Positions 14,833 through 60,466 of a stretch of 64,000 nt of DNA are shown piece after piece (position 1 is the stretch's first letter; each line of letters begins with the position of its first letter). Location of the stretch: positions 12,624 to 76,623 of the forward strand of contig JAZQUH010000026.1 in NCBI GenBank assembly GCA_045631185.1, read 5' to 3'. The stretch comes from Alphaproteobacteria bacterium (GTDB taxonomy: Bacteria > Pseudomonadota > Alphaproteobacteria > CAAHEQ01 > UBA3637). The notes under the pieces were generated by a model, which made no database searches, had not been told where the DNA came from, and was given only the letters and a program-made list of their open reading frames with translations. Made by a program: the position numbers and the translations under genes.

Positions 14833-15273
14833 TTATTCCTCAATCACGGCAACCGGTGGTAAAACAGAGGCATCAATTGTATCGGATGGCGCTTCTTGCG
14901 TGTTTTCGGGCAAAGATTCAATCGTTTCTTTTTCGCTATTTTCTTCCACCTGAATGGCCTCTTGTGTTTCCTCTGGTGTCGATTTAGCCTTTGGTTTCAA
15001 AGCCTGTTCATTTTCAATAGCAATAGCCTGCAAACGAAAATAATGATCGGCATATTGTTGATAAGTTTGCATCAAAACATCATCACCTTGCATTTGGGCA
15101 TCTTTGGCGGCCGCCTGATACTTTTCGGCCAACTGTAAAGCCGTGCCACGCAACTTGCCCAACGGACCCGTGGAATCGAAATTTGTATAGCGGAAAATTT
15201 GTTGCGTTTGATAGGAACGCACAGAACGATTATTGTTATTGTGGCGACGTGCCCGATTATGTTGGTTTTTCAT
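14833..15273 (-). CDS. DUF4167-like protein
   Basis: Arg/Asn-rich N-terminus followed by GTALQLAEKYQAAAKDAQMQGDDVLMQTYQQYADHYFR, as in DUF4167 proteins of alphaproteobacteria. Confidence 0.7.
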   Translation of the reverse strand: MKNQHNRARRHNNNNRSVRSYQTQQIFRYTNFDSTGPLGKLRGTALQLAEKYQAAAKDAQMQGDDVLMQTYQQYADHYFRLQAIAIENEQALKPKAKSTPEETQEAIQVEENSEKETIESLPENTQEAPSDTIDASVLPPVAVIEE

Positions 15274-15333: not shown

Positions 15334-15362
15334 ATTATAGCGAATTCAAACGGGGATGTCAA
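15334..15362 (-). promoter_or_regulatory. consensus sigma70-like promoter (minus strand) TTGACA-N17-TATAAT for the DUF4167 gene
   Basis: Reverse complement: TTGACA (15362-15357), 17 nt spacer, TATAAT (15339-15334). Confidence 0.55.
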
Positions 15363-15635: not shown

Positions 15636-18600
15636 TTATGGAATTGATGTTGCTGAATCAACATTCAACACCGCGTTAGGATAATTTTTAATACCTTGAG
15701 ATAATAACGTAAAATCTCCTGTTCCGGCATCGGATGTAGCTTGGCCAAAAGCAGTGGTTGCATTAATTGTCCCCTCATTGCGAATTCCATAAATTCCACA
15801 ATAAGAATCTGTGCAAGAATTTAAATGGGCGTATCCTTCTATATTTGTTGAGTTTAGAATGGCATTATTAAGAGCTAGGGCTACTCCTTGTGTATACGCC
15901 TGGGATGTTGCTTTTCCGATAATCTGGTCAACATTCGATGTTGTCGAACTCTGAAAAAATACCCCAAAGGCATGACATTTATTTCCAGAACATTCTGCTG
16001 TTCCTGAAACAGAAGTTCCTGTTATTTTAGCAGTATTGGAACCGGCAATTCTTACCCCATAAGATTGAGCGTTAGGTATATCTGTTGTTGTACTTCCAAT
16101 AACTTTTTTAACTTTCCAACTCTCCACGACTGAGACACCAGAAGGTTTTGAACTTCCAATTCCTTCGCCTTTTACTGTTTCTGCCGTTAAATTCCAGGCC
16201 CAAACACCATCAAGATATCCATCAGAAGAATTGCTTTCTGCTTTCCCATAAACTTCATTACCTGCTGTGCATGTTCCTGCGCAACTTATTCCTCTGTTGC
16301 TTGTGGTGTTTTCATCCCCTATGGATTCTCCCGTAATGTTGTTTTCGGCGATTAAGGTCCCGTACAAAACATCAATTCCAGAATTGTATTTTGCATGGGC
16401 TGTTATTTTACCAATAACATTTTTGGCTGAAAGGTGTCCTCCACCGATATCAATGGCGGCATTATGATCTGTATTTCCTACACTAATTCCGGTTATATCT
16501 TCTGATACTGTTACATAAGAAGAATCAGAGATAGTAATTCCACTTCCGTTTTGATTTGTGGCGCTTAAATTTTTTACTTTGAAGGTGTTTGCCGATACAC
16601 TTAGTCCACCGTCTATAATTAAATCACAATCAGATAAATCCATGTTTTGGGAAACGACCATATCACCTTTATAGTTGATTTGATTGTCGTTGAATGAAAA
16701 ACCTTCTTCTGTTTGTGATTCAGCATTTAATAAAAGGTATCCCGTATCTAACATTTCTTGACAACACACATTATTACCACACAAAGAAACTTCTACACAT
16801 CCTGTGGAATCTTCGTTTTGTTCATATCCTTCATTACAATAACAAGCAGTATTACCAATTTGATTGCCTTCAACAACGTTAGTGGATGAATTTTCAGGAC
16901 AACCACTGGTTGGACAAGCCATTTCCATTGGACAATTAACGGAATATTTTTTGTTCCTAAAATCATATCCCACCGCATTCTGACCAGACAATCCACCACC
17001 ACCACCAGCAAAAATCTGAATACCTGTATATTGAGAAGAATTAAGCGGTCCCATATTTCCATTATTAAACCAATAAGTGTAACCTGCAGGAGTATATCCC
17101 CAATAATCCGAAACAATTCCATTTCTTTTTAAAGCAGAACAAAAATTATAAGCAGTATCATAGGTAATATCTGTTTTTATAGCGTTATTTTTTACCACTT
17201 CTGTACATTCTACAGCTTTGCATTGACCACTGCACATTTGAGGAGCATTCGAAACATAATCTTCAGGATCAAAACTGCAATATTCTCCGGAATTACAGTC
17301 ATAATTATAAGAACATCCTGTCTCGCAAAGATTGGGTTGACAATTACCCTGGCCATCGCAAAATCCATTATCTGTTCCAAAAGAAGAATTTGTTTTACAT
17401 GATGTTCCAGAAGTTGCATATTCATATTCTTGAACACCATCTTTTGTTTGACAAGAAAGAATACAAGTTGACGGAGTGAAATTTTGACACATATCTAAAA
17501 AACATCCTGTTTTATCTTCATTCAGTTCATACCCTTCGTTACAATAACAAACAGTATTAGCTATTTGATTACCTTCAACAACGTTAGTGGATGAATTTTC
17601 AGGACAGGCACAAGCCGTTCCATTCCAAAGCAATCCTGCGTCACAAGCGCATTTTTCGCCCACTTGACAATTTACACAGGCGCTATGTTGATCATTGGCT
17701 TTTTTCCCAATTTCACAAACAGAACAAGCCGTCACACTGCCTCCAATACTATATTGATCAAATTGAGCACAAAAGACGCAGGTATTTCCGTTTTTGTAAT
17801 AGCCGGCCAGACAGGTAAAACCGTTTGTATCACAAGTGTCCACACCCGTTGTCGGACATTGAACACACGAATTTCCGCTTAAATAATAACCATCTTCACA
17901 TTCTGTCGGATTGCCATCTTCATCACATATTGCAACACCAGTTCCACAGGATGTGCAAGAATTTCCATTTTTATAATATCCGGCCAGACAGGTAAAGCCA
18001 TCATCATCACAAGTAGCAACTCCTGTTGTTGGGCAAGCAATACACAAATTTCCGCTTAAATAATAACCATCTTCACATTCCGTCGGATTGCCATCTTCAT
18101 CACAAGATAAAACATTTGCACCACATGATCTACATCTGATACCATCTTTATAATATCCTTCCTTACATTCAAAACCAGCACTTTGACAATTAATACTGTT
18201 TGTCGGACACTGAATACAAGCACCATTATGTAAAAAATATCCTGGAACACAACCTATGGGATTAAAATTTTCATCGCAAATGGTATTAGGCGGACATTCC
18301 TTGGGTTGAAGATTCCTATCTGGATTTCCCTGAGCAAATCCAGGAAATTTTTCAAAATAAAAAACAGCTTCATTATTGTCACAATTATCATCTTTTTTCA
18401 AAGCACCAAGATCTGATTCAAGTAATAACTCACACAAATGTTTATTTCCCAATGTTGTAATAATCCAAAACCAATCTTTATTTACCAGCCCTATACCATT
18501 TTCGATTTCAAAAAGAGTGTTGTATGGTCCGATTTCTGTACGTTTCATGGGTTTATGTTGTAAACCTGACATATTAATCTGCCGTGCATTTTTAATAGAA

Positions 18601-18746
18601 ATAATACGTTGAGATAAAACATTTGTTTGGCCTTTCAAAGACATTGTATTCCATGTATAAAAAACAACACCGCTGATCAAGCATATGATCGCAATAACCA
18701 ATGTTACCTCTATCAGAGTTTTTCCTCTTTCCTTACTATAAAACAC
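15636..18746 (-). CDS. prepilin-leader cysteine-repeat modular protein, subfamily A, member A1 (1036 aa)
   Basis: N-terminus MFYSKERG|KTLIEVTLVIAIICLISG (Gly-1, Glu+5, hydrophobic helix). Then a small globular module with 2 Cys, tandem CxxC / GYY modules, a lectin-like insert, and a Gly/Asn/Ser/Thr-rich C-terminal half. GTG start 4 nt after a GGAGG. Confidence 0.8.
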   Translation of the reverse strand: MFYSKERGKTLIEVTLVIAIICLISGVVFYTWNTMSLKGQTNVLSQRIISIKNARQINMSGLQHKPMKRTEIGPYNTLFEIENGIGLVNKDWFWIITTLGNKHLCELLLESDLGALKKDDNCDNNEAVFYFEKFPGFAQGNPDRNLQPKECPPNTICDENFNPIGCVPGYFLHNGACIQCPTNSINCQSAGFECKEGYYKDGIRCRSCGANVLSCDEDGNPTECEDGYYLSGNLCIACPTTGVATCDDDGFTCLAGYYKNGNSCTSCGTGVAICDEDGNPTECEDGYYLSGNSCVQCPTTGVDTCDTNGFTCLAGYYKNGNTCVFCAQFDQYSIGGSVTACSVCEIGKKANDQHSACVNCQVGEKCACDAGLLWNGTACACPENSSTNVVEGNQIANTVCYCNEGYELNEDKTGCFLDMCQNFTPSTCILSCQTKDGVQEYEYATSGTSCKTNSSFGTDNGFCDGQGNCQPNLCETGCSYNYDCNSGEYCSFDPEDYVSNAPQMCSGQCKAVECTEVVKNNAIKTDITYDTAYNFCSALKRNGIVSDYWGYTPAGYTYWFNNGNMGPLNSSQYTGIQIFAGGGGGLSGQNAVGYDFRNKKYSVNCPMEMACPTSGCPENSSTNVVEGNQIGNTACYCNEGYEQNEDSTGCVEVSLCGNNVCCQEMLDTGYLLLNAESQTEEGFSFNDNQINYKGDMVVSQNMDLSDCDLIIDGGLSVSANTFKVKNLSATNQNGSGITISDSSYVTVSEDITGISVGNTDHNAAIDIGGGHLSAKNVIGKITAHAKYNSGIDVLYGTLIAENNITGESIGDENTTSNRGISCAGTCTAGNEVYGKAESNSSDGYLDGVWAWNLTAETVKGEGIGSSKPSGVSVVESWKVKKVIGSTTTDIPNAQSYGVRIAGSNTAKITGTSVSGTAECSGNKCHAFGVFFQSSTTSNVDQIIGKATSQAYTQGVALALNNAILNSTNIEGYAHLNSCTDSYCGIYGIRNEGTINATTAFGQATSDAGTGDFTLLSQGIKNYPNAVLNVDSATSIP
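16821..16901 (-). repeat. 81 bp direct repeat, distal copy (inside A1)
   Basis: About 90 percent identical to 17526-17606 and exactly 705 bp (235 codons) away. Encodes CPENSSTNVVEGNQIGNTACYCNEGYE. Confidence 0.85.
17526..17606 (-). repeat. 81 bp direct repeat, proximal copy (inside A1)
   Basis: Encodes CPENSSTNVVEGNQIANTVCYCNEGYE. See partner at 16821-16901. Confidence 0.85.
17769..18218 (-). repeat. in-frame tandem repeat, 177 bp unit, about 2.5 copies (inside A1)
   Basis: atttccgcttaaataataaccatcttcacattc(t/c)gtcggattgccatcttcatcaca recurs at 17871 and 18048. tttttrtaatakccggccagacaggtaaa recurs at 17791 and 17968. Encodes CDEDGNPTECEDGYYLSGN...CPTTGV.TCD..GFTCLAGYYKNGN. Confidence 0.9.
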
Positions 18747-18755
18747 ACTTCCTCC

Positions 18756-20990
18756 CTAATAACAATATCTATTTTGCTGGCACCACGGTATATTTTGACA
18801 TTGAGCCGATTCAGAACTGGTGAAAGGTCCTTCTTCATCTAATTTAACCAAAGAACAACTACTTCCCTTTACTCGAGTAGCATAATTTTGAAGATAATAT
18901 TTTGCATTACCAACAAAAAGTTGGCCCTTTCCTACTTCGCAGGCCCCTTCATATTGAACAACCCGTGTTTTAAGGCTCTCCGAAACATTTCTTCCTACAA
19001 ACAATGAAGCAACTGTATCCACTTGCATATCACCACTGCCATTAATAGAACCACAAACAATAGTTTGAGAATTAATTGATTTTCCTGAATCTTTTATACC
19101 TGCTAAACGAACATTCCCCGTAACCGTCAAATCGCCACCAACCGCTAAATGATTCCAGTTTCTAAAATCTTCATTTATGCTTACATTTAAATTTTTTCCC
19201 ACAAGAATCTTTCCCATATTTAAAACATTATTACCTGCCAAAATATTAATACTACCATTAGGAACTGATATTTCAGCACCAAAATCAACATGGACAGTAT
19301 ATTGATTATCCTCATCAGAATCAGCTCTCTCGTCTGAAATAATAATATCACCATTTTTTGAAATAATTTTTCCCACAGCCTGAATTTGCTCAACAGAAAT
19401 AACACCTTCTGCTTCACCAGAAGAGATAACTGATGCTGTTATATAATCATCACTTTGAACATTATGAACACGACCAGAAACAGACACATAACGTCCAACT
19501 TTAATAGGGCTTAAGACATCCCTTGACGTAAGCAAACTTTCACCAGAAGCATAGCCAAGTATTTTTACTTCAGCTGGAGCAACCAGTTCAAAGGTCATCA
19601 TTGTTAAATTTCCACCAACTTTTAAATTTGCATTTGTATAAAAAGGTCCCATTATTTTCAAATCATCTGAACAAACTATTTTTTTACTGGAAATTCCAAT
19701 TTCTGAATCAGAATCATTTTCATATGTAAAAATTTCATTACCAGAAGAATTTATTACTAAATTTTTTGCAAAAACATTACCCAAAATATATGTTTCTGAA
19801 CCAGTTTCTATTCTCAAGTTACAATCCTGAAAATCCAAATCCTCTTTTATTATTATAGGTTCTGATGAATTTTGAGCTTTCAAGACAACCGTTTCTCCAC
19901 TTAATGAAGCCTTTATATTACCATCCAACGAAATTGAGTTCACCAAAGAAGCACAATCAACATTTTTCACACACGCAGTATGATCCGAATTATGTATATA
20001 ACCATCCGAACAAGGAGTACATTTTGTTGCACCTTCTGCACTGTAATGATTACTGGGACATCTCAGACAACCAGACTGTGTTTTATAATAACCCGCCTCG
20101 CATTTTTCAGAAGAAGTGGATGAAGCGGTCTTATGCCCTGAAGAAGGAGAATAAGAAGAACGCTTAACCGAGGCTGTGGGAGCAGCAACAGAACCAATCC
20201 CCCCTCTACTTCCGGAAACAGCCCCCCCCGTTCCACTACTCGAAGATTGAGAACAAAAACCTGGACCCAAAGTTGAACAGGGAACACAAGCACCATCAAT
20301 CGAATAATAATTAGGAAGACATTCTATAGGTTCTCCATTATCATTACAATTTCTCACACCTTCTCCACAAGTTACACACTCCCCATTGAGCGGACGATAA
20401 CCTATTTGGCATTCAAAAGCTTCACCCTCACAATTTGTACTCTTTTCCGGACATGGTTTACATTTTTTATCAGAAAGATAAAAACCAAAATAACAGTTAG
20501 TAATATTAAATTCCTCATCACATTCCGCATTTGCTGGACAAGCATCAGGTTGATTTTGCATATCGGGATCACCTTTTTGAGTGCTTTTATATTTAGAAAA
20601 ATAAAAAGTTACTTCATGACGAGAAGAACATTTCGCCTTATCAACTCTGATATAATCAATCTCTGAATCAGCCAAATACTTACACAACATTGAATTACCA
20701 ACTGTCACTGTTATCCAAAAGAAATTGGCATTTTTCTTTCCTACACCATTTTCAACCTTTAAAACAGAGCCATTTGGACCTTTTTCAGTTTGAATATCCT
20801 TATCCTCGCTATGAAGCTTTACAGACGCTTCACGAGCCGACTTCACAGAAACAACATATCTAGCAATCGTACGAGCTTCAACTTTTAAACGAGCTGAATT
20901 CCACAAAAAAACTGCAAAAAAACCCAATGATAAAACCGATATTAAAACTAATAACTTCCAATTGATTTTTCCATCTTGAATTAAAAACAT
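18756..20990 (-). CDS. subfamily A paralogue A2 (744 aa) with a degenerate prepilin motif
   Basis: N-terminal 230 aa are collinear with A1 and A3 (ENGVGKKNANFFWITVT..., CxxC modules), but the motif reads DG|KINWK (Glu+5 replaced by Lys). Ser/Gly-rich linker, then a beta-helix-like C-terminal half. Confidence 0.75.
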   Translation of the reverse strand: MFLIQDGKINWKLLVLISVLSLGFFAVFLWNSARLKVEARTIARYVVSVKSAREASVKLHSEDKDIQTEKGPNGSVLKVENGVGKKNANFFWITVTVGNSMLCKYLADSEIDYIRVDKAKCSSRHEVTFYFSKYKSTQKGDPDMQNQPDACPANAECDEEFNITNCYFGFYLSDKKCKPCPEKSTNCEGEAFECQIGYRPLNGECVTCGEGVRNCNDNGEPIECLPNYYSIDGACVPCSTLGPGFCSQSSSSGTGGAVSGSRGGIGSVAAPTASVKRSSYSPSSGHKTASSTSSEKCEAGYYKTQSGCLRCPSNHYSAEGATKCTPCSDGYIHNSDHTACVKNVDCASLVNSISLDGNIKASLSGETVVLKAQNSSEPIIIKEDLDFQDCNLRIETGSETYILGNVFAKNLVINSSGNEIFTYENDSDSEIGISSKKIVCSDDLKIMGPFYTNANLKVGGNLTMMTFELVAPAEVKILGYASGESLLTSRDVLSPIKVGRYVSVSGRVHNVQSDDYITASVISSGEAEGVISVEQIQAVGKIISKNGDIIISDERADSDEDNQYTVHVDFGAEISVPNGSINILAGNNVLNMGKILVGKNLNVSINEDFRNWNHLAVGGDLTVTGNVRLAGIKDSGKSINSQTIVCGSINGSGDMQVDTVASLFVGRNVSESLKTRVVQYEGACEVGKGQLFVGNAKYYLQNYATRVKGSSCSLVKLDEEGPFTSSESAQCQNIPWCQQNRYCY
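20222..20229 (-). repeat. G8 homopolymer tract (C8 on plus strand) inside the A2 coding sequence
   Basis: gccccccccg at 20221-20230 encodes part of SSGTGGAVSG. A second C6 run lies at 20199-20204. Confidence 0.95.
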
Positions 20991-21018
20991 TTTAATCCCC
21001 CTTAGTTAATTAAGATTA

Positions 21019-21047
21019 ACTGTAAAATATTTTTTTTATAAATGCAA
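21019..21047 (-). promoter_or_regulatory. sigma70-like promoter (minus strand) TTGCAT-N17-TACAGT for the A2-A1 operon
   Basis: Reverse complement: TTGCAT (21047-21042), 17 nt spacer, TACAGT (21024-21019). Confidence 0.4.
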
Positions 21048-21069: not shown

Positions 21070-21098
21070 TTGACTTATACTATTTTTTTTCATATAAT
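21070..21098 (+). promoter_or_regulatory. consensus sigma70-like promoter TTGACT-N17-TATAAT for rimP-nusA-infB
   Basis: TTGACT 21070-21075, 17 nt spacer, TATAAT 21093-21098. Confidence 0.6.
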
Positions 21099-21170
21099 GA
21101 GTTTAACTTTCTGTGTGTTTTGGAGAGTGGGACTTGAAAAAGCCCCACTTTTTTAACAAAAGGGAATAAA

Positions 21171-21656
21171 ATGGAATTGATAAAAAAAGTACAAAATGCT
21201 GTAGAGCCCGCCCTGAACGATATGGGTTATGATGTTGTTCGTATATCCGTTCAAGGAACCACTTTGCAAACATTACAAATTATGGCCGAACGTCAGGACC
21301 GAAAAGAAATGACCCTGGATGATTGTTCACGCATCAGCCATACCGCCAGTGCTTTGTTGGATATTGCCGATCCGTTTGCCGGTAAATGGGTGTTGGAAGT
21401 TTCCTCCCCCGGTATTGACAGACCCTTGGTCAAACCCAATGATTATGAACGCTTTGTCGGTGAACAAGCCAAAATTGAATTAAATCATGAAATCAACAAA
21501 CGCCGTCGTTTTAAAGGAATTATTCAGGGATTTAAGGATGGCTTTGTCCAATTGGATTTTGAAGGTCAAATTATTGCCCTGCCCTTTGATGATATCAGCA
21601 AGGCAAAACTGACTTTCCCAGAAGAAATTTTTAACAACAAAAAAGGAGCAAAATAA
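21171..21656 (+). CDS. rimP: ribosome maturation factor RimP
   Basis: 161 aa directly upstream of nusA. LEVSSPGIDRPL motif. Confidence 0.9.
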   Translation: MELIKKVQNAVEPALNDMGYDVVRISVQGTTLQTLQIMAERQDRKEMTLDDCSRISHTASALLDIADPFAGKWVLEVSSPGIDRPLVKPNDYERFVGEQAKIELNHEINKRRRFKGIIQGFKDGFVQLDFEGQIIALPFDDISKAKLTFPEEIFNNKKGAK

Positions 21657-25954: not shown

Positions 25955-26839
25955 CTAAACTTTTAATTTTTCGGCCTCTAATGCTGATGCCTCTAACACA
26001 GATTCCGGTATTGTAATTTCAGGATGATTGGATTGCATATATTCAACATATTTGTATTCCACATATTTAAATAAATCAACCACATCTTGAACTTTTTGAT
26101 AATCGCATGGGTGTTGTGTTCTGGCCTGATAACTTTCAACTAAAGCTTTGCCCCATTGTTCGTTTGTTCGACCCCAAAAACGCCCCAAATCAGCATGCCT
26201 GTCCGAAACAGAAGCAAAAGAAAAATCGATGATACCACTGACATGTCCATTATCAATCAAAACATTGCCAGGATTAAAATCGCCATGGATAATTGCCGGG
26301 GCTGTATTTTGCATTTCCATGGCACATAAAGAAGAATGTTTTTGTAAATCATAATCCCCCTGATGCACCGTTGCAAGACCGGCCAAGAAATCCCCCAAAC
26401 TTTCTTTGATTTCATGTGGCATATCTGAAGTTGGAATCGCATGCAGTTCCTGTAAAAACAGGCTCAAATCTTCAATGATTTTGGCGCGTTCATTATTGCC
26501 CATTTTATCCATTTGAGAAGTCAGCGATTGTCCTTTAATCTTGTTATGAACGGAAAAAGGTCTATTTTGGCTCATATTCAATTGCATATCCGGGGTCGGC
26601 AAACTGACTTTGCCCTTTAAAAAAGAGCAAAATATACAATCTTTTACCATCATACGGGCAAAAAATAAATTTCTGGGAAAACGAAAAATATAATCTTGCA
26701 CTTCACCCTTAACATCCATCGTTATGTTTGTCCAACCTGTTTGGATAACATCTGCATGAACCAAAACATCTTTGCCCATCAAATTTTCACGTATGACGTT
26801 TTCCAGTTCATTTTCATCCGGGGTAAAAAAGTTATACAT
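25955..26839 (-). CDS. aminoglycoside-phosphotransferase-fold (APH / choline-kinase-like) kinase
   Basis: Catalytic loop HGDFNPGNVLIDN and IDFSFASV (DFG-like) motifs. Confidence 0.75.
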   Translation of the reverse strand: MYNFFTPDENELENVIRENLMGKDVLVHADVIQTGWTNITMDVKGEVQDYIFRFPRNLFFARMMVKDCIFCSFLKGKVSLPTPDMQLNMSQNRPFSVHNKIKGQSLTSQMDKMGNNERAKIIEDLSLFLQELHAIPTSDMPHEIKESLGDFLAGLATVHQGDYDLQKHSSLCAMEMQNTAPAIIHGDFNPGNVLIDNGHVSGIIDFSFASVSDRHADLGRFWGRTNEQWGKALVESYQARTQHPCDYQKVQDVVDLFKYVEYKYVEYMQSNHPEITIPESVLEASALEAEKLKV

Positions 26840-27671
26840 CTTCTGACTCCATTAAATTTTTCATCCATTTTTTCTTGGCCTGTAATAATGTTTCCGGATT
26901 TCCAACGGGAAAATCCATCTGGCGATATTCTTGCAATACCTGAACGGCCAAAGGATCGTTCAAATGTGTTTTTTGAATCGGATCCGTCAAATGATGCGCC
27001 CATAAAATCAGCGTATCTCTTTCGGTAAAAAGTCCCGATTTTGTTAAAGCTGATAAACAAGGTGCCAAGGCATTATAAAAATAATCAGATGAACTCATCT
27101 TGACAATACGGCCTGTTGCTTGTTGACGTTGTTGAATAAAAAAATCAGATATCTTGCGTGGCACACATAAAACATGGGTTTGAATTTTATAATTCATTTT
27201 TTTTGCCAGCGTCATCAGGTAAAGATCAATTTCGGGTTCCAACAAAGTCATATCAAAAATAATATTTACCTGATTTAAAATACAGTGCTTATAAAACATC
27301 ACCAATGCCCTAAGCGCAAAACCGTTTGTTTTTTCCCGTATTTGATCTGGGCATTGTTGTTGCCATTGTTGATATTGTGGATGAAAAGGCGCAAAAGCCC
27401 CCACATTGATTTTGATTACATCTTTATTTTGAAGTGCATTTTCCAAAGCCGGTACCAATTGTGAAGATTTTCCCGAACCTGATTGACCGGCCACCCGAAT
27501 TAAAAACGGATTTTTTTGACCAATTATTTGACTTTGAAAATGCTGGATAATTTGATTTAAGGGCACTTTGTCCAGTAAATCTTCCTCGCACGGAAAAATT
27601 CGCTGAATAGCCTTAAAGGCCTGATTTTCCAATGCGACAAAAGAAGAATCCTGTAAAAAATGTATATCCAT
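26832..27671 (-). CDS. zeta-toxin-like / AAA P-loop kinase family protein
   Basis: Walker A VAGQSGSGKSS at the position and overall size (279 aa) typical of zeta-toxin-domain proteins. 8-nt overlap with the downstream APH-like gene. Confidence 0.5.
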   Translation of the reverse strand: MDIHFLQDSSFVALENQAFKAIQRIFPCEEDLLDKVPLNQIIQHFQSQIIGQKNPFLIRVAGQSGSGKSSQLVPALENALQNKDVIKINVGAFAPFHPQYQQWQQQCPDQIREKTNGFALRALVMFYKHCILNQVNIIFDMTLLEPEIDLYLMTLAKKMNYKIQTHVLCVPRKISDFFIQQRQQATGRIVKMSSSDYFYNALAPCLSALTKSGLFTERDTLILWAHHLTDPIQKTHLNDPLAVQVLQEYRQMDFPVGNPETLLQAKKKWMKNLMESEDV

Positions 27672-27808: not shown

Positions 27809-28996
27809 TTATGCCGGAACACACTTACTTCCATTCCAAACAGGACGAGTAGCAGGGCAACAGGCCCCATATTGATGTCCTCTAGGTCTAAATCCAATAT
27901 CCGTATACACTTCATCTTCTGTGCAACAACGACCAACATTATCACCAAAATTGTTATTCGGACAATCAATCACACAATGATCATAATAATCATAGAGCGA
28001 AAAACTGATTCCAGGACATTTATTACAACCTGAAGAACTCCAATATGATGTTTGAACTCCACAGGTTATACACTGCCCCCATCCATCATAAAATTGGCCT
28101 GGTCCAGTACAAGGTTTATCACAACTTTCGCCCCAACCAGCATCTGATGTTAAAATTCGTACTCCTCCACATTGCTCAACACATTCTAAATTTTCCTCAT
28201 GAGTTTGATGGTGTGTGTATGCACCAGAATCACAGGATTGACATTTTGAAGCCTGATAGGAATAAAAAAAGCCGGGCGGACAACTTTCCAAAACACAAGC
28301 ATTGTTTCGGAAAACATATCCAATTCCCTCGTAAGTACATTTTGAACACTCTGCCTCAGAATCAGCGGAAAACTCTGTATAATCCTGAAAGAATGTCGGA
28401 CATTCTATACAAGTTCCTCTTGCTGATAACACAGGTTTATTCGGCGGACAAGAGTTATCACACAATGGTTCAGGAAAACAACGAGACATATTGCAATGAG
28501 CGCAATAACCGCAATCTGCATCAGAAGAACATTGTGCTTCACTTGATTTTAGTTCTTTTTGATACACTAAAGAAACCGTTGCATTATCAACACATTCTTC
28601 TGGATAAAAAGCAAAAATCGAAGTTCCAACACCCGCACTAAGCTTAGCATGTTTACAGACGTCTTTTTCAACACCTGAAACAGATAAAACAAAATAATTA
28701 TCTGTATGCTTAGCTATTTGCCCAAGATCATTTTTTACTTCTGTAGAAAAAGTACCATATCCTGATGTGTTGAATTCTGAAATATTAGGATCTTTTTTAT
28801 TTACCATTTGAATAGAAACAGAGGTTGCACGCAAAGAAGCCTCATGTAATAATGTATTTGCCTTACTTTTTGCCATTGAAGTTGTATAACCATATATTCC
28901 CCCAATACTCAAAACACCAATAACAGCTAATACACCCAACATTTCAACCATTGAGCGACCAGATTCTGGTTTTAGTTTTTTTCGACTAAAATACAT
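27809..28996 (-). CDS. prepilin-leader cysteine-repeat modular protein, subfamily B, member B1 (395 aa)
   Basis: MYFSRKKLKPESG|RSMVEMLGVLAVIGVLSIGGIYGY leader and helix. Pilin-like module with 2 Cys, then about 220 aa of CxxC / CPPGFF modules. Confidence 0.8.
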   Translation of the reverse strand: MYFSRKKLKPESGRSMVEMLGVLAVIGVLSIGGIYGYTTSMAKSKANTLLHEASLRATSVSIQMVNKKDPNISEFNTSGYGTFSTEVKNDLGQIAKHTDNYFVLSVSGVEKDVCKHAKLSAGVGTSIFAFYPEECVDNATVSLVYQKELKSSEAQCSSDADCGYCAHCNMSRCFPEPLCDNSCPPNKPVLSARGTCIECPTFFQDYTEFSADSEAECSKCTYEGIGYVFRNNACVLESCPPGFFYSYQASKCQSCDSGAYTHHQTHEENLECVEQCGGVRILTSDAGWGESCDKPCTGPGQFYDGWGQCITCGVQTSYWSSSGCNKCPGISFSLYDYYDHCVIDCPNNNFGDNVGRCCTEDEVYTDIGFRPRGHQYGACCPATRPVWNGSKCVPA

Positions 28997-29591
28997 AACG
29001 CCACCCCAAATAAATCATATGTTGAATACCTTCAAAAGAAACATTTTGTTTTTCTGAATCTTTAAATTTTTTATCCCCAAGATCCACATAACGATACCCT
29101 AAATCCAAACTCATCCGGCGATTAAGAGCAAAACTCAAACCTCCCCCAACATTCCACGCCATACCAGAAATATCAGAGCTGATACCAGGATCGGCTTTGA
29201 TTGTTCCCGAGTAATGACCAAGTCCTAAATTAACAAAAGGCATTACAGAACGAGACATAGGAAGTTCATAATACAACTGTGCACTATACATTTTATTTTC
29301 AAACTGATAATCACTCAAATCCGCTTTCGTATTAAATGCAAATTCAGCAGCCAAACGTAATCCTCCAAATTTAGCTCCCAAAGCAATATCAGCATTTAAG
29401 CCAGAATCTTTATCTGAAGTTGGCTCATTTTTAAAAACAGGCGAACGTGGACCCGATTTACCCTCTGTGATATTCATTCCTGCCATAGCCCCCACATAAA
29501 AGCCACTAAGCTGACGTGGCGTATAAGCGTAAACCACAGAAGTAAAGGATAACGCACCCATAAAAACAAAGCTCAACAAATAACGCATCAC
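28986..29591 (-). CDS. small outer-membrane beta-barrel protein (OmpA-like / OMP_b-brl type)
   Basis: Signal peptide, alternating amphipathic strands, terminal ...YLGWRYVF. 11-nt overlap with the B1 start. Confidence 0.75.
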   Translation of the reverse strand: MMRYLLSFVFMGALSFTSVVYAYTPRQLSGFYVGAMAGMNITEGKSGPRSPVFKNEPTSDKDSGLNADIALGAKFGGLRLAAEFAFNTKADLSDYQFENKMYSAQLYYELPMSRSVMPFVNLGLGHYSGTIKADPGISSDISGMAWNVGGGLSFALNRRMSLDLGYRYVDLGDKKFKDSEKQNVSFEGIQHMIYLGWRYVF

Positions 29592-36720: not shown

Positions 36721-39366
36721 ATGCGCAAAACAGAATCGGGACGCTCTATTTTAGAAACGACACTGGTGATTGCTATCATTGTACTGTTAGTTGCAGGGAC
36801 TGTCACTGTATGGAATGTTTTTAAAGAGAAAAATCAAGTTCGTTCTTTGGAGGAACGATTGGTTGCCTTACGTTCAGAACGTCAAACCAATATTATCCCT
36901 AATTTAAGAAAACGATTAAAGCGGACAGAAGATGGGCCTTTTGAAACTCAAATCGAAATGGAAAATGGCATTGGCGATGTCAATAATGATTATTTTTGGA
37001 TTGTTGTAACAACACCTACTGTATCGCTTTGTAACGCATTAGAATCTGTGGATTCTGGAACGTTAAAATCTTCCAAAATCGAAAATTCATGCGCCGAAGA
37101 AAAAGCCATCACTTTTTATTTTAAAAAATTTGATAAAGCAGTCGGCGAACCTGATAAAACAAAACAACCAACAGATTGTCCTCTAAACGCTGTTTGTAAT
37201 GAATATTTAGAGGTCGTCAGTTGTAAAGATGGTTATTACCTATACCAAGGTGAATGTCTTCAATGTCCTGAAAACTATTCTATATGCAGCGGTATTAATT
37301 TCAGTTGTGGTGAAGGAAAATATCACGATAAAGCCTCTAATTCTTGTTTAGCGTGTAATAACAATGCAATTAAATGTGATGAATCAGGAAATCCATTAGA
37401 ATGTGGAAATGATTATTTTATGAAAAGAGATACTCAGGAATGTGTTCGTTGTCCTGAAATCGGTTTACAATTATGTGATACTTATACTTTTATATGCGAA
37501 GATGGTTACTTTAAATCTGGCGATATTTGTGATTACTGTGGAGATGGAATAAGCAAATGTGATATAGATGGTTCACCATTAGAATGCAAAGAAAACTATT
37601 ATATCATTACAGCAAATGGAGTAACAACATGTGAACAATGCCCAACGGTTGGTGTGTCACAATGTGATACCGATGGTTTTATATGTCAGGAAGGTTTTTA
37701 TAAAAAAAATAATTCTTGTATATCCTGTGGTACGGGAACAGAATCTTGCGACATAAATGGTGCTCCCCTAAAATGTAAAGATGGCTATTATCTTAAAACA
37801 GTAAACAACACTAAGCAATGCAATCAATGTCCAACAGAGGGCGTTGACAGTTGCACAACAAATGATTTTTCGTGTAAAATTGGTTATATAAAAGATAGCA
37901 ACAATGGTTCGTGTAACTGTAAAACAAATGGTCAACTTGGTAATGAATGTAGTGAACTTTGTTCAAATTCTTGTGCTGTTGGTTTTTGTAGCAATAATAA
38001 GTGTGTCCAAGAAACATGTCGTAAAACAGGCGATATAAACACCAATATTCTAATTACTTGTGATGCGGGACAAGTCTGTTTAGAAAACGGTTCTTGCGCA
38101 AGTGCTTGTCCATCTGGATATAATTCAGATGGTTATTGCTGTCCAGAAGGACAAAAATGGGATTCTGAAAATAAAATTTGTACTAATTGTCTGCAGGGTG
38201 CCGCATGTGGTTGCCCCCAAGATACACCTATTTCCGATGGTAATGGAAACTGTATTGCAAATTGTCCAGAAAACAGCTCTCGCACTGTTATAGAAGGCAA
38301 ACAAATCGGTACAACAGGATGCTATTGTAAAGAAGGATATCAAGTTCATGAAGATGGCTGTCTTTCTGTATGCCTGGGCGGTGCAGAATACACCACAGTA
38401 GAAAATGCAAAAGGAGAAGCCACTAACCTTGAAAATTGCTATTGTCCAGAAAACAAACCCTATTGGAATTTGGGAAGCGAAGAATGTACAGAAACTCAAG
38501 TGACAGATTGTACCGGCACTTTAACGGATGACGGAGCTTGTTGTCCCACTTACCGTGTTTATCAATCCGGGGAAGAAAATCTTTGTTGTAATTTAACATG
38601 CGAAAGCAACAGTCAAGTATTAGATATACAAACTTGTTCTTGTTTAGGATGTACAGGGGAAGGTTGTTGTCCAACAGGCAGTATTTTGTGTAATTTACAA
38701 TGTTGTGATATTGGTGCTGCATGCAACACAACCTCTCACCAATGTTGTGAAATTGGGGAAGTAGTCCTTAACGGTTTTTGTTGTCCTTTTGGCACAACCG
38801 CTGCCACATCAAATGGATGTTGTGAACCGGGGCAAAAGGTTATCAATAATCTTTGTTGTGATGTGGATGATTTAGATACCACGACTGTTAATCCTGAACG
38901 CACGGCATATACATGTTGTGACGGGGTTACTTTTGATTGGACAGGATATATAAATTGGATATCTTCTTATAGAGAAACATATAAGATTTGTTGCTCTGAA
39001 GGTAGTGGTGGTTATGCATATAATGATAAAAAATGCTGTGGCGAGGGAGAAACCGTTGTTGATGGACATTGTTGCCCGGCCGGCAGTACTCACTATGCCC
39101 CTGATGCTGATGGAAAATATATTTGCTGCAGTGATGATTTATATTCTGACTATGAAAAGAAATGCACCGATGGTGTTGAACGTTGGGTGGTCATCAGCGA
39201 ATGTTCCAAATTAAAAATCAGCTGCCCAAGAACTTCTAAACGTGCCTGCGGTTTGGATTGTTGTGAAGGCGATGAAAATTACTGTAATTTGGATGTTGAT
39301 ACAGGACTTTATTATTGCTGTAAAGACAGACATGAAGAAATAACTCAATGCGAAAGTAATTTATAA
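36721..39366 (+). CDS. prepilin-leader cysteine-repeat modular protein, subfamily A, member A3 (881 aa)
   Basis: MRKTESG|RSILETTLVIAIIVLLVAG. N-terminal module collinear with A1/A2 (ENGIGDVNNDYFWIVVTT). CxxC / GYY modules, then a CC-doublet-rich C-terminal third. Confidence 0.8.
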   Translation: MRKTESGRSILETTLVIAIIVLLVAGTVTVWNVFKEKNQVRSLEERLVALRSERQTNIIPNLRKRLKRTEDGPFETQIEMENGIGDVNNDYFWIVVTTPTVSLCNALESVDSGTLKSSKIENSCAEEKAITFYFKKFDKAVGEPDKTKQPTDCPLNAVCNEYLEVVSCKDGYYLYQGECLQCPENYSICSGINFSCGEGKYHDKASNSCLACNNNAIKCDESGNPLECGNDYFMKRDTQECVRCPEIGLQLCDTYTFICEDGYFKSGDICDYCGDGISKCDIDGSPLECKENYYIITANGVTTCEQCPTVGVSQCDTDGFICQEGFYKKNNSCISCGTGTESCDINGAPLKCKDGYYLKTVNNTKQCNQCPTEGVDSCTTNDFSCKIGYIKDSNNGSCNCKTNGQLGNECSELCSNSCAVGFCSNNKCVQETCRKTGDINTNILITCDAGQVCLENGSCASACPSGYNSDGYCCPEGQKWDSENKICTNCLQGAACGCPQDTPISDGNGNCIANCPENSSRTVIEGKQIGTTGCYCKEGYQVHEDGCLSVCLGGAEYTTVENAKGEATNLENCYCPENKPYWNLGSEECTETQVTDCTGTLTDDGACCPTYRVYQSGEENLCCNLTCESNSQVLDIQTCSCLGCTGEGCCPTGSILCNLQCCDIGAACNTTSHQCCEIGEVVLNGFCCPFGTTAATSNGCCEPGQKVINNLCCDVDDLDTTTVNPERTAYTCCDGVTFDWTGYINWISSYRETYKICCSEGSGGYAYNDKKCCGEGETVVDGHCCPAGSTHYAPDADGKYICCSDDLYSDYEKKCTDGVERWVVISECSKLKISCPRTSKRACGLDCCEGDENYCNLDVDTGLYYCCKDRHEEITQCESNL

Positions 39367-39444: not shown

Positions 39445-40527
39445 GTGAAAAAATATCTTTTAATTATCATTTTTGTTTTGTGTTTGGGCGGGATTGCTTT
39501 TTATTTATGGCATCAAACAAAGCCAAAAAAAATTGCCGATAAAAGCGAAAAAATCGTTTTGCCTGTTCATACATTAAAAAATCAATCTTTTACCTATACG
39601 GAAAGTTATATCGGTTCGGTTCAGGCCATTCAATCGGTCAATATCGTTCCTTATTTATCAGGGTTTTTGGATCAGGTTTTGGTCAAATCCGGCCAAGAAG
39701 TGATACAAGGCGAAACCCTGTTTATGTTGGATCAACGTATTCCAACGGCCGATTTGAATCAAGCCAAAGAAGCCGTTCAACAGGCCAAAGCCACACGCAC
39801 CAATGCGCTAAACTTTTATGAAAGGATGAAAAACACTCAGGAACAAGCCATATCACCCACCGAATTGGAACAGGCCCAAACAAAATTTCAAGAAGCCGAT
39901 GCGGCCTATCAAAAAGCAATTGCCGCCCAAAATCAAGCACAAACATTATATGATTACAGTGTCATTTTGGCGCCCATCAGTGGTTGGGTGGGCAACATTA
40001 CCGCCACCATCGGTGAATACTTATCCCCCAATGGGAAAGTTTTGGCGACCATTATTGCCTTTTCCCCCATTCGCCTGACCTTTTCTTTACCCTTGGCCAA
40101 CTATCCGCCCAAAATGCCGTTAAATCAAGCCACATTAGAGATTGTTTTGGAAAATGGTAAAAGTGTCTATTTTGAAAACTTTAATCTTTTACAGGATAAT
40201 CAGGCCGACAAGACAACCGATTCCATTTCAATGTTTGTGGATGTTGATAATGAAAATCGCCAGTTTGTCCCCGGTGCCTATATTGAAGTACGGTTTTTAT
40301 TCAAACAAACAGGAATTTTGGCGAATAAAGATTGGATTATGCTAACACCAAACGGGGCCGAAGCCTATGTTTTAAATCATCAGATTATTGAAAAAAGAAG
40401 TGTTCAAATTATTGGTGCCATTCAAAATCAATACTGGATAACCGGTTTAAACGAAGGCGATAAAATCATTACCGTTACCGTTTCACCCTATCAAATCGGG
40501 CAAAAGGCCGAAGGAGTTGAACAATGA
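39445..40527 (+). CDS. RND efflux periplasmic adaptor (membrane fusion protein)
   Basis: N-terminal anchor, lipoyl / alpha-hairpin pattern (ETLFMLDQR...VILAPISGWVGN). 4-nt overlap with the RND gene. Confidence 0.85.
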   Translation: MKKYLLIIIFVLCLGGIAFYLWHQTKPKKIADKSEKIVLPVHTLKNQSFTYTESYIGSVQAIQSVNIVPYLSGFLDQVLVKSGQEVIQGETLFMLDQRIPTADLNQAKEAVQQAKATRTNALNFYERMKNTQEQAISPTELEQAQTKFQEADAAYQKAIAAQNQAQTLYDYSVILAPISGWVGNITATIGEYLSPNGKVLATIIAFSPIRLTFSLPLANYPPKMPLNQATLEIVLENGKSVYFENFNLLQDNQADKTTDSISMFVDVDNENRQFVPGAYIEVRFLFKQTGILANKDWIMLTPNGAEAYVLNHQIIEKRSVQIIGAIQNQYWITGLNEGDKIITVTVSPYQIGQKAEGVEQ

Positions 40528-43500
40528 ACTTCTCATCCTTTTTCATCTCACGTCCACGCTTTGCCGGCGTTATTGCTTTGGTTATGATATTGGCGGGCAC
40601 CATTGCGGCTTTCGTTTTGCCTATTTCGCAATACCCCAATATCACGCCACCGCAAATCGTAATATCGGCCAATTATCCCGGTGCCAATGCATCCGTTTTG
40701 GCCGATACCGTTGCTACACCGATAGAAAATCAAATCAATGGTGTGGAAGGAATGTTATATATGTCGTCCACCACAACCGATACAGGGCAATATAGTTTGA
40801 CTGTTACTTTTGATGTGGGAACGGATCCGGATATTGCCCAAGTCAAAGTGGAAAACAGATTGGATAAAGCCAAACCTTTTTTGCCCGAAATTGTGGTTCA
40901 GGAAGGTTTAGATGTTGTGCAACAATCGGCCAACATTTTGGCCTTTATTACTTTAAGTTCCCCCAACGCAACTTATACACCGCTTTATTTAAGCAACTTT
41001 GCCTTTACACAAATACAAAATCCGTTTAAACGTATTGCCGGCATGGGGGATGTCAATATCTATGGTCCACAACACAGTATCCGTATTTGGTTGGATGTCA
41101 AAAAAATGAATAGCCTGCAATTGACATCCGATATGGTTATTCAGGCGATTGAATCCCAAAATCAGGTGGCCAGTGTGGGATCATTATCATCGTCCCCTGC
41201 CCCTGAAGGAACAAATCAGGTGCTTTCTTTAACCAGTAAAGGGCTGTTAAAAGACGTGGCCGATTTTGAACAAATTGTCATTCGGGCCAATTTAAACGGT
41301 GGTTTGGTACGATTAAAAGATATTGCCCGTATTGAATTGGGGGCCGACAATTATCAAATCAGCGCCAGCTATAATAACCAACCGTCCGTTGTGATGAGTT
41401 TGACACAATTGCCCAATTCCAATTCTTTGCAAATCATGAAAGATTTAAAAAAAGAAATGGCCCAATTAAAAAAGAGTTTTCCCAAAGATATGGAATTTGA
41501 AATTGTCTATGATTCCACCACCTATGTTCGGGCCAGTATTCAGGCGATTTTAATGACCCTGTTTTTAACCTTTTTATTGGTGATGGCGGTTGTTTATGTT
41601 TTTTTGCAGGATATCAAAGCCACATTGATTCCCATGATTACCATTCCTGTTTCTTTAATTGCTACTTTTATGGTGATTTACGCATTGGATTTTGATATCA
41701 ATATCTTAACTTTATTTGCCATGATTTTAGCCATCGGTTTGGTGGTGGATGATGCCATCGTTGTGGTGGAACGGGTGCAATATTTGATTCAATACAAAAA
41801 TATGTCAGCCTTACAGGCATCACATCAGGCCATGAAAGACATCACTTCTTCTGTGATTGCCACTACTTTGGTTTTAATGGCTATTTTTATTCCGGTGGGT
41901 TTAATGGCCGGCATGACAGGAAAAATATATCAACAATTTGCTGTCACTTTATCAACGGCTGTTTTCTTTTCTTCGGTCAATGCATTGACATTAAGTCCCG
42001 CCCTGTGTGCCATCTTTTTAAAAAATCCGTCAAATAAAAAATTCAAATGGAAAGTATGGTTTGATAATCTGTTAAACAAAGCAGAAAGCATATATGTGAA
42101 ATGTGTGCGTTTTTTATGCGATCACCTGAAAACCAGTTTGATAATTACTTTTTCCGTGATTGTTTTAATTGTCAGTTTATTTATTCGGGTTCCTCAGGAA
42201 TTTATCCCCCAAGAAGATCAGGGTATCATTTTGGCCAGTATTCAATTACCATCCACCGCCAGCATCAATCAAACACAAAACTTATTAAAACAAATGTCCG
42301 ATCAAGCACGCAAAATGAAAGGCATTCAATCTTTCATCAGTATTGCCGGCCACAGCATGTTATCGGCCAGCGGTGAAAATATCGCCATGGCGGCCATCGT
42401 TTTAACACCTTGGGATGAACGGGATAAATCAGGGCTTTCCATGGAAAAGATTTTAAATGAATTGAATCAAAAATTTGCCTCATCCCATCAGGCTCAAATA
42501 AACTTTTTTGCCATGCCCTCCATCCCCGGTGTCGGTAATGCCGATGGTATCAGCTTTCAAATCAATGCATTGGACCAAAATACCACACCTGATGAATTGG
42601 AAAAAGCCTTAACAAAAGTTTTGAACTTTATCAATGAAAACAAACTTTTTGCTTTTGGCTTTTCGCCATTTACGGCCGATACGCCACATGTTTATTTGGA
42701 TATCAATCGAACAAAATTATCCGCCTATCAGGTTTCCTTGGCTGATTTATTTTCTGTTTTGCAAAATAATTTAGGTTCACGATACGTCAACAACATCACC
42801 TTGGACGGACAAATCAACAAAGTCATTGTTCAGGCCGATTTTAACGCCCGACAAGACATTTCGGATATTGAAAAACTTTATGTGCCGAATGCATCGGGCC
42901 AATTGATTCAAATCCAAAACTTTTTAAGCGAAAAAATTGTTTTAATGCCCAAAATCATTTACCGTTTTAATCAATACCCCAGTGCCGGCATCACCGCCCA
43001 AACAGCGACTCATGTCAGTTCGGGAACCGCCATAAAATCATTACAGGATTTTGAAAAAAGTTTAGGCAATAAATTTTCCTTTGCCTGGACGGGACTCACC
43101 TTACAGGAAGTTGAAACTGCCGGATTGGCTTTGATTTTAATTACATTGGCACTGATTTTTTCTTATTTATTTTTGGTGGCGTTATATGAAAGTTGGTGGA
43201 TTGCCTTTGCGGTTATTTTAACCAATATCTTTGCCATAGCGGGGGCGCTTATCGGGCTTGAAATTTGGGGATTGTCATTCAGTATTTATGCCCAACTGGG
43301 GATTGTAATGCTGATAGGATTGGCCAGCAAAAACGCCATTTTAATCGTCCAATTTACCACCACTTACCAACGATCGGGCATGGATACGATTCAGGCCGCC
43401 GTTAAAGGTTCTGGCGAACGATTTCGGGCGGTTTTGATGACGGCTTTAACCTTTATATTGGGAACCTTTCCGATGGTGGTTGCCTCAGGTGCCGGTGCCG

Positions 43501-60395: not shown

Positions 60396-60466
60396 CCGTT
60401 TTTTTATTTGCATTTTTAAAAATATTTTTTTATACTCAAAGTATAATAACACGAAAGGATATTACA

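Follow-up and report, generated by a model that had tools for sequence, protein, structure and literature searches.

The window, i.e., the whole stretch of 64,000 nucleotides of alphaproteobacterial DNA that was analysed, contains two adjacent giant genes, A2 and A1, whose products belong to a family of type IV pilin-like, modular proteins that is specific to this lineage and has been left without annotation. We propose, with moderate confidence, that they form a co-transcribed pair: A1 would be the variable member, an adhesin of the modular-pilin kind, and A2 the conserved one, a paralogue descended from pilins that is probably not cleaved and stays anchored in the membrane. The pair was pointed out in an initial annotation of this DNA as two giant family members lying 9 nt apart, and the coordinates, on the minus strand, as well as the gap (18747-18755) were borne out. 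The positions of both genes, of their modules and of the other family members are collected in Table 1.

A search of the window with A1 and A2 (tblastn) found six family members, A1, A2 and the paralogues B, C, D and E, and in a six-frame search the pattern G-x4-E followed by a hydrophobic run gave six matches in 64 kb, five of which mark the start of a family protein (A1, B, C, D and E). The collinearity of A1 and A2, which the initial annotation had placed in the first ~230 residues, was confirmed and reaches further (A1 residues 30-358 against A2, 32% identity over 332 aa, E-value 1.8e-46). The relation of the common N-terminal module to known proteins was read from a sequence profile, since a Foldseek search with the whole A2 model is dominated by short matches to the Cys domains and is uninformative for the pilin head. 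The profile of 16 N-terminal modules gave 18 matches in the PDB, all of them type IV pilins (best E-value 1.4e-4; Geobacter PilA-N, PAK PilA, PilE, TcpA, PpdD and MshA), and the Gly and Glu of the family align on G(-1) and Glu5 of these solved pilins. The AlphaFold model of full-length A2 (mean predicted local distance difference test score, pLDDT, 79) has the “lollipop” topology of a pilin, with a predicted helix at residues 8-56 (49 residues) and then a small β-sheet head at 66-132 (strands 66-70, 76-81, 90-96 and 126-132). A class III signal leader is hydrophilic, 6-26 residues long and ends in Gly(-1), after which come ~21 mainly hydrophobic residues of α1 (PMC4471445); the A1 leader, MFYSKERG, has eight residues, two of them basic, and ends in Gly(-1). 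A1 and A2 both have the composition of a modular pilin, a pilin module joined to modules foreign to the pilus. All relatives with a source name come from entries called “MAG: Alphaproteobacteria bacterium” (MAG, metagenome-assembled genome), and their GapR, TrcR and DUF4167 neighbours agree with this origin; the family has so far been met only in uncultured Alphaproteobacteria, which are probably gut-associated, and a literature search for pili in RF32-type gut Alphaproteobacteria returned nothing. The paralogues B, C, D and E are scattered among the housekeeping genes of the window. The start of member C is overlapped by 11 nt by an outer-membrane β-barrel gene (28986-29591, minus strand); the two genes may be a further small operon, which would tie the family to the envelope.

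The initial annotation correctly stated that A2 keeps the Gly and has Lys at +5, where A1 has Glu (A1 MFYSKERG/KTLIE, A2 MFLIQDG/KINWK; the slash stands between -1 and +1). In an alignment of 16 members Gly(-1) is present in 15 and Glu5 in 13, and the three exceptions at Glu5 are exactly the A2 clade. A comparison of orthologues at +5, which had been proposed at the outset, found Glu absent from the whole clade: the residues at -1 and +5 are Gly and Lys in A2 and in its orthologue P0042, and Asn and Leu in P0043, which is of the type named SIG60. A leader that ends in Gly(-1) is therefore not common to the clade as a whole, and Glu at +5 is missing from A2. The A2 leader (MFLIQD) has no basic residue, that of P0042 (MFLVRDG) has a single Arg, and the aligned N-terminus of P0043 reads MKEHSEN/FRLVL, with Asn at -1. 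This SIG60-type N-terminus, MKEHSENFRL[V/I]LK, is unchanged in four of six population variants and differs by one V/I swap in the other two, while elsewhere the six variants differ at up to 50 residues. The hydrophobic stretch of A2 comprises 18 residues and is bounded by Lys residues.

It was established that Gly(-1) is absolutely critical for prepilin processing and that Glu5 is dispensable for it; Glu5 mutants fail to homopolymerise, yet they co-assemble with the wild type into mixed filaments (PMC4471445). In addition, tip pilins of the GspK family naturally lack Glu5 (PMC5207764). The premise of the initial annotation that loss of Glu+5 bars a pilin from filaments does not stand against these two examples, and because of them the Glu5 loss alone says little about the fate of A2. 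It is the loss of Gly in one orthologue, together with an A2 leader without basic residues, that points to an uncleaved signal-anchor, as far as can be read from the N-termini.

The conservation of A2 argues that the altered protein is in use. Two full-length orthologues were found, P0042 (745 aa, 66% identity) and P0043 (741 aa, 50% identity), and a third, partial one lies on L007 (52% identity). The initial annotation had named stops or frameshifts in orthologues as the mark of a simple pseudogene, and none was found in the three. The orthologues share a syntenic slot beside rimP-nusA-infB, the gene order being rimP, A2, further genes, DUF4167 and acpS. The ratio of nonsynonymous to synonymous substitution rates (dN/dS, Nei-Gojobori) is 0.25 for A2 against P0042, with dS 1.07, and 0.11 for the partial L007 orthologue against P0043; the span quoted for A2 is 0.11-0.32, all these values being approximate, since dS of the A2 pairs is ~1 or more and near saturation. 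Along A2, dN/dS is 0.25 in the N-terminal helix, lowest in the Cys-rich hairpins (residues 146-246; 0.08) and 0.65-0.8 in the disordered linker. Nine cluster members of at least 90% identity come from independent samples. A scan of metagenomes with the A2 alignment found no further orthologue, and a scan of GTDB species genomes found the SIG60 MAG only. Another relative, P0020, bears an A2-type C-terminal module (23% identity, the same C..WC..C ending) on a canonical N-terminus (NENG/RTMLE), so A2 descends from a canonical member. Judged by these comparisons, A2 is under purifying selection and is a conserved working variant, not a decaying one, because it is conserved despite the lost processing and assembly motif. 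It is also the more conserved of the pair; the C-terminal module of A1 is without a close relative.

The two genes are likely transcribed together. The junction reads ...TGT TAT TAG GGAGG AAGT GTG. The initial annotation had a GGAGG overlapping the A2 stop; GGAGG itself begins after the TAG, and it is the longer form, GGGAGG, that shares 1 nt with the stop. The Shine-Dalgarno sequence of A2 has a counterpart in L006, where GAGGGAGG occupies the equivalent position. As to the promoter that had been suggested at 21019-21047, the site falls under the threshold of the sigma-70 promoter scan, but the arrangement TTG...-17-TAnnnT recurs at the corresponding position before the A2 orthologues of L006 and L002, and because of this conservation in two other genomes the site is still a reasonable candidate for the promoter of A2-A1. 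The scan found no minus-strand sigma-70-like site of at least 9/12 upstream of A2 and none in the last ~500 nt of A2, and the terminator scan found no terminator-like site at the junction, where 9 nt leave no room for one. Since the counts of promoters and terminators in these scans equal the shuffle expectation, the scans carry little weight and are supportive, not decisive, for a single transcription unit. A perfect 12/12 sigma-70 consensus (TTGACA-17-TATAAT) appears only after A1, at 15334-15362 (minus strand), before the DUF4167 gene (14833-15273). Equally tight tandem gaps occur elsewhere, 15 nt in L006 and 14 nt in L007. The short gap with its internal Shine-Dalgarno sequence, the lack of a promoter of at least 9/12 in the 3' end of A2 and the recurrence of such gaps make co-transcription from a promoter upstream of A2 likely, which falls short of the “almost certainly” of the initial annotation. 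Scans for tRNA genes and with Rfam gave nothing within the locus.

Behind the pilin module both proteins continue into a Cys-rich stalk and end in a module of another kind. The Cys content is 11.5% in A1 151-665 and 10.7% in A2 151-346, as against 1.9% in A1 666-1036 and 2.0% in A2 347-744, and Gly, Asn, Ser, Thr, Val and Ile together make up 57% of the C-terminal part of A1 and 52% of that of A2; the switch from Cys modules to Cys-poor tracts rich in these residues was thus correctly perceived. In the stalk, A2 scores 16.2 bits on NCD3G (PF07562; cut-off 38.9), 58 columns of its model match the cysteine-rich domain of the calcium-sensing receptor in Foldseek (probability 1.0, E-value 0.05), and P0020 and P0005 score 21.2 and 17.5 bits on VSP (PF03302; cut-off 31.4). 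None of the models for eukaryote-type Cys-rich repeats (PF03302, GCC2_GCC3 PF07699, PF07562, TNFR-like) was matched at its gathering threshold, and the likeness of the stalk to such repeats is a resemblance only.

For the C-terminal halves the structure predictions, also proposed at the outset, gave confident all-β, solenoid-like modules in both proteins. The A2 module is conserved at 53-64% identity in the orthologues. The A1 module has an entry motif, INYKGDMVVSQNMDLSDCDLIIDG, ~25-residue repeats and SYC near its end, and the model of A1 641-1036 is all-β (predicted TM-score, pTM, 0.82), with pLDDT > 90 at fragment residues 20-200 and an unreliable segment of the last ~30 residues. The top 50 Foldseek matches of this module are mostly β-helical (solenoid) proteins, chiefly right-handed parallel β-helices, with TM-scores of at most 0.39; the weak matches include phage tailspikes, HxuA, HMW1, EtpA, pectate lyase, polygalacturonase and PfbA, and those of the whole A2 model include HxuA, Hap, EtpA and a gut-metagenome β-helix. 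As a fold class, the β-solenoid is supported by these models. The proposed resemblance to parallel β-helix adhesin passengers holds at the level of fold class and goes no further, given that neither an autotransporter barrel nor a two-partner secretion (TPS) domain is present. Membership of the autotransporter or TPS systems was ruled out: there is no translocator barrel, no TPS domain and no TpsB-like neighbour, Pfam and NCBIfam give no autotransporter or TPS domain in A1 or A2, the models end in β-hairpins or in a low-confidence tail, and the matches to the secretion domains of HxuA and HMW1 have E-values of at least 0.05.

The A1 module stands without close relatives. A word-indexed search returned no relatives, not even A1 itself, and no close relatives were found in metagenome contigs; an exhaustive HMMER search among 1.8 billion representatives gave eight weak relatives (best E-value 2e-10), mostly matching over the entry motif and the first repeats. 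These eight define a module type with an ITYxGDMxVxxxLDISxCDLxVxG entry, ITGxA...GI..xGTIxA repeats of ~25 residues and a YYC ending, which is sometimes repeated within one protein and in two cases follows a canonical pilin N-terminus, GRSMVEML. All that modules of the A1 and A2 types have in common is the entry segment (hhalign local E-value 1.5e-5, 74 columns).

The tandem itself recurs in other genomes. In L006 the 15 nt behind the A2 orthologue lead to a gene starting with MYRAEKG/RTLLE, where the contig ends, and in L007 the 14 nt behind the partial orthologue lead to P0002 (1273-3780), followed by DUF4167 and acpS; in L008 it is P0008 that sits before DUF4167 and acpS. In SIG60-type genomes DUF4167 comes directly after the A2 orthologue, with no A1-like gene between. 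Because the A2 clade has the tandem on either side of its deepest split, the arrangement is probably the ancestral one, with a loss in SIG60. As for the second gene, it has a mosaic structure. Between A1 and P0002 there is 61% identity over residues 6-420, and beyond that the two share only the entry segment; within the shared part α1 is 22% identical (dS 1.35) and the Cys repeats 77% (dS 0.40), a patchwork that suggests recombination or gene conversion among family members. P0008 shares with A1 the central insert (62%) and has a C-terminal module that is P0002-like at 32%. The insert of A1, missing from P0002 and present in P0008, sits between two copies of a CPENSS...CYCNEGY unit, with 110-nt direct repeats on its two sides (16797-16906 and 17502-17611, 87% identical); a profile made from it matches C-type lectin domains in the PDB weakly (E-values 3e-4 to 0.3). 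The Cys repeats of A1 also hold a 177-nt tandem duplication (17778-18131, 80% identity). The distal modules of the second gene differ from genome to genome, and the alignments show that they were swapped at one orthologous slot.

How could such a pair work? Each family member has a pilin module (a class III-like G/[RK][ST]xxE signal, α1 and a small β head with one conserved Cys pair), a thin Cys-rich stalk and interchangeable distal modules, which may be Cys-capped β-solenoids, a domain like that of lectins or the discoidin domain seen in paralogue D. A1 would be inserted into the inner membrane by the signal recognition particle and Sec (SRP/Sec), cleaved after Gly8 by a prepilin peptidase, with Glu5 serving for docking, and shown on a type IV filament, either as a minor subunit or as the one at the tip; the solenoid and lectin-like modules of A1 would be the adhesive end. 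A2 would most likely be neither cleaved nor polymerised, because it has no Glu5, its Gly is not conserved among the orthologues and Lys residues flank its 18-residue hydrophobic stretch; co-expressed with A1, it would stay anchored in the membrane, N-in and C-out, and hold its conserved β-solenoid in the envelope.

Several observations weigh against this mechanism. No family member reaches the cut-off of a Pfam or NCBIfam pilin model: A1 scores 14.2 bits on N_methyl (PF07963; cut-off 21.2) and 13.7 on TIGR02532 (cut-off 16.3), A2 matches neither, and no pilin-model match was found for B and E at E ≤ 0.01 or for C at E ≤ 0.001. Every canonical N-terminus of the family has Arg or Lys at +1 (e.g., at 18725, 28960, 36739, 48132 and 57621). 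In known pilins this position is usually occupied by Phe, Met, Leu or Val. Arg or Lys at this position is unusual for substrates of prepilin peptidase, so the processing of A1 is an assumption; it is probably also because of this feature that the family escapes the curated N_methyl models. A2 and P0042 keep Gly at the right spot, so both may be cleaved. Neither the A2 model nor that of the A1 module has a Foldseek match at E ≤ 0.001 (best E-values 0.05-0.07), and the near-saturated dS given above bears on the conservation argument as well. Finally, genes for a prepilin peptidase, an assembly ATPase, a platform protein or a secretin were found neither in the window nor in the fetched flanks of related loci; as no machinery of a pilus or of a type II secretion system (T2SS) was seen there, the type IV filament machine of this organism is putative.

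Three other explanations of A2 or of the family were weighed. A2 could be a GspK-like initiator or tip pilin, cleaved after Gly7, which as the first subunit has no need of Glu5 and primes or caps a short fibre that incorporates A1. This agrees with the proposal of GspK-family minor pilins, which lack Glu5, as the first subunit (PMC5207764), with processing that can dispense with Glu5 (PMC4471445), with the Gly at the aligned -1 of A2 and P0042, with a predicted A2 fold that is still pilin-like and with the place of A2 as the gene just before a canonical member in what looks like one operon. GspK and XcpX, like A2, are large pilin-like proteins that naturally lack Glu5, and the loss is thus compatible with function; however, in GspK position +5 is hydrophobic, Gly(-1) is retained, the head carries an α-domain and the gene is the last of the gspHIJK cluster (PMC5207764). 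A2 has Lys at +5, a Gly that is not conserved in its clade and a head into which AlphaFold places no α-domain, and it is not the 3' end of a minor pilin cluster, being the 5' gene of two that stand among housekeeping genes between rimP and DUF4167, with no small gspHIJ-like minor pilins nearby. Moreover, the SIG60-type orthologue, which stands alone with no pilin gene downstream, has Asn in all six variants at the position where Gly is critical for cleavage (PMC4471445), and the leader of A2 itself lacks basic residues. We therefore consider a GspK-like role rather unlikely. The pseudogene explanation, either as a decaying copy, as the initial annotation had it, or as a decaying duplicate of A1, could appeal only to the Glu5 loss and the weaker motif. 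It was ruled out by the intact 744-codon open reading frame (ORF), the unbroken orthologues in the same syntenic slot, the dN/dS values, that of the N-terminal helix included, the nine cluster members from independent samples and the fact that A2 is better conserved than A1, and it is effectively refuted.

The remaining explanation concerns the family as a whole, A1 included: the pilin-like N-terminus might be a mere membrane anchor or export signal unrelated to filaments, and the G/E motif a relic. No type IV filament genes were seen near any family member, the thresholds of the curated hidden Markov models (HMMs) for pilins are missed, Arg or Lys at +1 is atypical, and archaeal proteins with class III signals are known outside classical pili, as in the Sulfolobus bindosome (PMC4471445). 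Such a role apart from filaments is nonetheless improbable in our estimate, as Gly(-1) and Glu5 are kept to the extent given above at an overall identity of 15-40%, which argues for continuing selection on the motif. The motif was lost in one clade only, that of A2, all PDB matches of the profile are true pilins, and pilus genes are commonly unlinked to the genes of minor or modular pilins. The proposed pair of a filament adhesin and an anchored partner can also be extended to a pilin-derived division-of-labour cassette, in which A2 would be a conserved scaffold, anchored in the membrane and uncleavable, and A1 a cleavable, fast-diversifying partner whose distal modules are exchanged between strains by recombination in the Cys-repeat and CPENSS segments. 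The family would then be an undescribed display system of gut Alphaproteobacteria, maybe without a classical type IV pilus, and the unusual G/[RK][ST]xxE signal and the eukaryote-like Cys-rich stalks would be features of this new system; we consider the extension speculative and put it among the distinctly improbable ones.

Table 1. The A2-A1 pair with its signals and modules, and the other family members of the window (positions in the window).
Feature	Positions	Strand	Description	Basis
A2 coding sequence	18756..20990	-	744 aa, ATG start; pilin-derived paralogue, degenerate class III motif	ORF list
A1 coding sequence	15636..18746	-	1036 aa, GTG start; modular type IV pilin-like protein	ORF list
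A1 Shine-Dalgarno GGAGG	18751..18755	-	inside the gap, directly after A2 TAG; 4 nt before GTG	
A2 Shine-Dalgarno AAGGGGGA	20996..21003	-	5 nt before A2 ATG	sequence reading
Candidate A2-A1 promoter	21019..21047	-	TTGCAT-17-TACAGT, 7/12 consensus positions; putative function	
A2 residues 8-56	20823..20969	-	long N-terminal helix (pilin α1 equivalent), hydrophobic 13-30, Lys at +5	AlphaFold and alignment
A2 residues 57-145	20556..20822	-	pilin-like β-sheet head, family-invariant Cys103 and Cys121	AlphaFold and alignment
A2 residues 146-246	20253..20555	-	Cys-rich β-hairpin repeats (stalk)	AlphaFold hairpins (150-240)
A2 residues 247-294	20109..20252	-	disordered Ser/Gly-rich linker	pLDDT < 50
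A2 residues 295-346	19953..20108	-	second Cys-rich module (NCD3G / calcium-sensing receptor-like)	Pfam and Foldseek
A2 residues 347-744	18759..19952	-	β-solenoid-like module, conserved C..WC..N..C end motif	AlphaFold all-β, pLDDT mostly > 90
A1 residues 1-55	18582..18746	-	class III signal-like leader MFYSKERG, then KTLIE and hydrophobic α1 helix	sequence; alignment
A1 residues 56-148	18303..18581	-	pilin-like head	homology to modelled A2 head
A1 residues 149-415	17502..18302	-	Cys-rich repeats, ending with the first CPENSS module	repeat search and sequence
A1 residues 416-615	16902..17501	-	inserted module, possibly C-type-lectin-like	bracketed by direct repeats
A1 residues 653-1036	15639..16790	-	Cys-capped β-solenoid-like module	AlphaFold and module alignment
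Family member B	36721-39366	+	G/[RK][ST]xxE N-terminus	tblastn
Family member C	27809-28996	-	G/[RK][ST]xxE N-terminus	tblastn
Family member D	45349-48180	-	G/[RK][ST]xxE N-terminus; ends in F5/8 type C (discoidin) domain	
Family member E	56566-57651	-	G/[RK][ST]xxE N-terminus; ends in lectin-like domain related to the A1 insert	

Other features of the window were also recorded. On the plus strand, between a strong promoter-like site at 21070-21098 (11/12) and the start of rimP, the leader at 21099-21173 holds a GC-rich hairpin and a U-run (GAGAGUGGGACUUGAAAAAGCCCCACUUUUUU), has a fold z-score of -3.2 and hardly differs in two other genomes; it has the appearance of an attenuator acting on transcription of the rimP-nusA-infB operon. 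A single ORF of 1500 aa (40524-45026, plus strand) joins a full AcrB-type transporter of the resistance-nodulation-division (RND) class (residues 3-1024) to an OEP/TolC-like outer-membrane-factor domain (1313-1495), an unusual fusion of inner- and outer-membrane components that is preceded by a gene for an HlyD-type adaptor. An overlapping minus-strand pair at 25955-27671 encodes a zeta-toxin-like kinase (26832-27671) and an APH-family phosphotransferase (25955-26839), and a 600-aa ankyrin-repeat protein is encoded between ruvC and dnaA (60362-62164, plus strand); proteins with such repeats are typically those of host-associated bacteria.

The functional range of simple type IV filaments is attributed to modular pilins, of which very few were studied, most of them from monoderms. 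The present family adds an expanded set of very large modular pilin-like proteins from uncultured Alphaproteobacteria of animal guts that is invisible to Pfam and NCBIfam, and the swapping of modules in the downstream slot is what adhesins that bind hosts or glycans would be expected to show under diversifying pressure. The A2 clade offers a natural experiment on what a pilin module does once it is no longer a pilin, and for annotation it teaches that loss of Glu5 should not be taken as pseudogenisation.

Which known systems come closest? PilB and PilC of Streptococcus sanguinis likewise consist of an N-terminal class III pilin module with grafted modules, von Willebrand factor A (vWA) in PilB and a lectin module in PilC; for such modular pilins, many of which escape domain databases, adhesion via the distal module was proposed and a location at the tip is expected (PMC8179133). 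In comparison, A1 and A2 have two to three times the size, a long Cys-rich stalk between the pilin and distal modules, come from a diderm alphaproteobacterium, carry Arg or Lys at +1, stay below the IPR012902 / N_methyl thresholds and have no known pilus operon. In ComZ, the competence pilin of Thermus thermophilus, a β-solenoid is reportedly inserted into the pilin β-sheet and is said to bind DNA. ComZ, proposed to sit at the pilus tip, resembles A1 and A2 in using a β-solenoid as the functional module (PMC6561018, PMC8179133), whereas their predicted solenoid is C-terminal, Cys-capped and placed after the stalk, and no significant structural or sequence similarity to ComZ was detected (Foldseek). 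CofB and TcpB, the initiator minor pilins of type IVb pili, also combine a pilin module, a flexible linker and β-rich C-terminal domains displayed at the tip (PMC5207764, PMC8179133), but they keep Glu5, belong to a pilus operon and have a β-repeat and a β-sandwich in place of a Cys-rich stalk and a solenoid. The β-helix passengers (the autotransporter Hap; the TPS exoproteins HxuA, HMW1 and EtpA) share the predicted fold class and are among the best, though non-significant, Foldseek matches; A1 and A2 have no cleavable Sec-type signal, C-terminal barrel, TPS domain or TpsB partner, so their export route must differ. Planctomycetes and Verrucomicrobia (DUF1559) as well as Elusimicrobia contain many dispersed prepilin-type N-termini on unrelated C-terminal parts with no linked machinery; these expansions belong to other phyla, have other C-terminal domains and the canonical Phe at +1, and are recognised by curated HMMs. 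The nearest known kind is thus the modular pilin, from which the locus is set apart by the size of its proteins, the Cys-rich stalk, the Cys-capped type of solenoid, the G/[RK][ST]xxE signal, the presence in a diderm of a family of many dispersed copies and a conserved lineage, that of A2, which has given up the class III motif.

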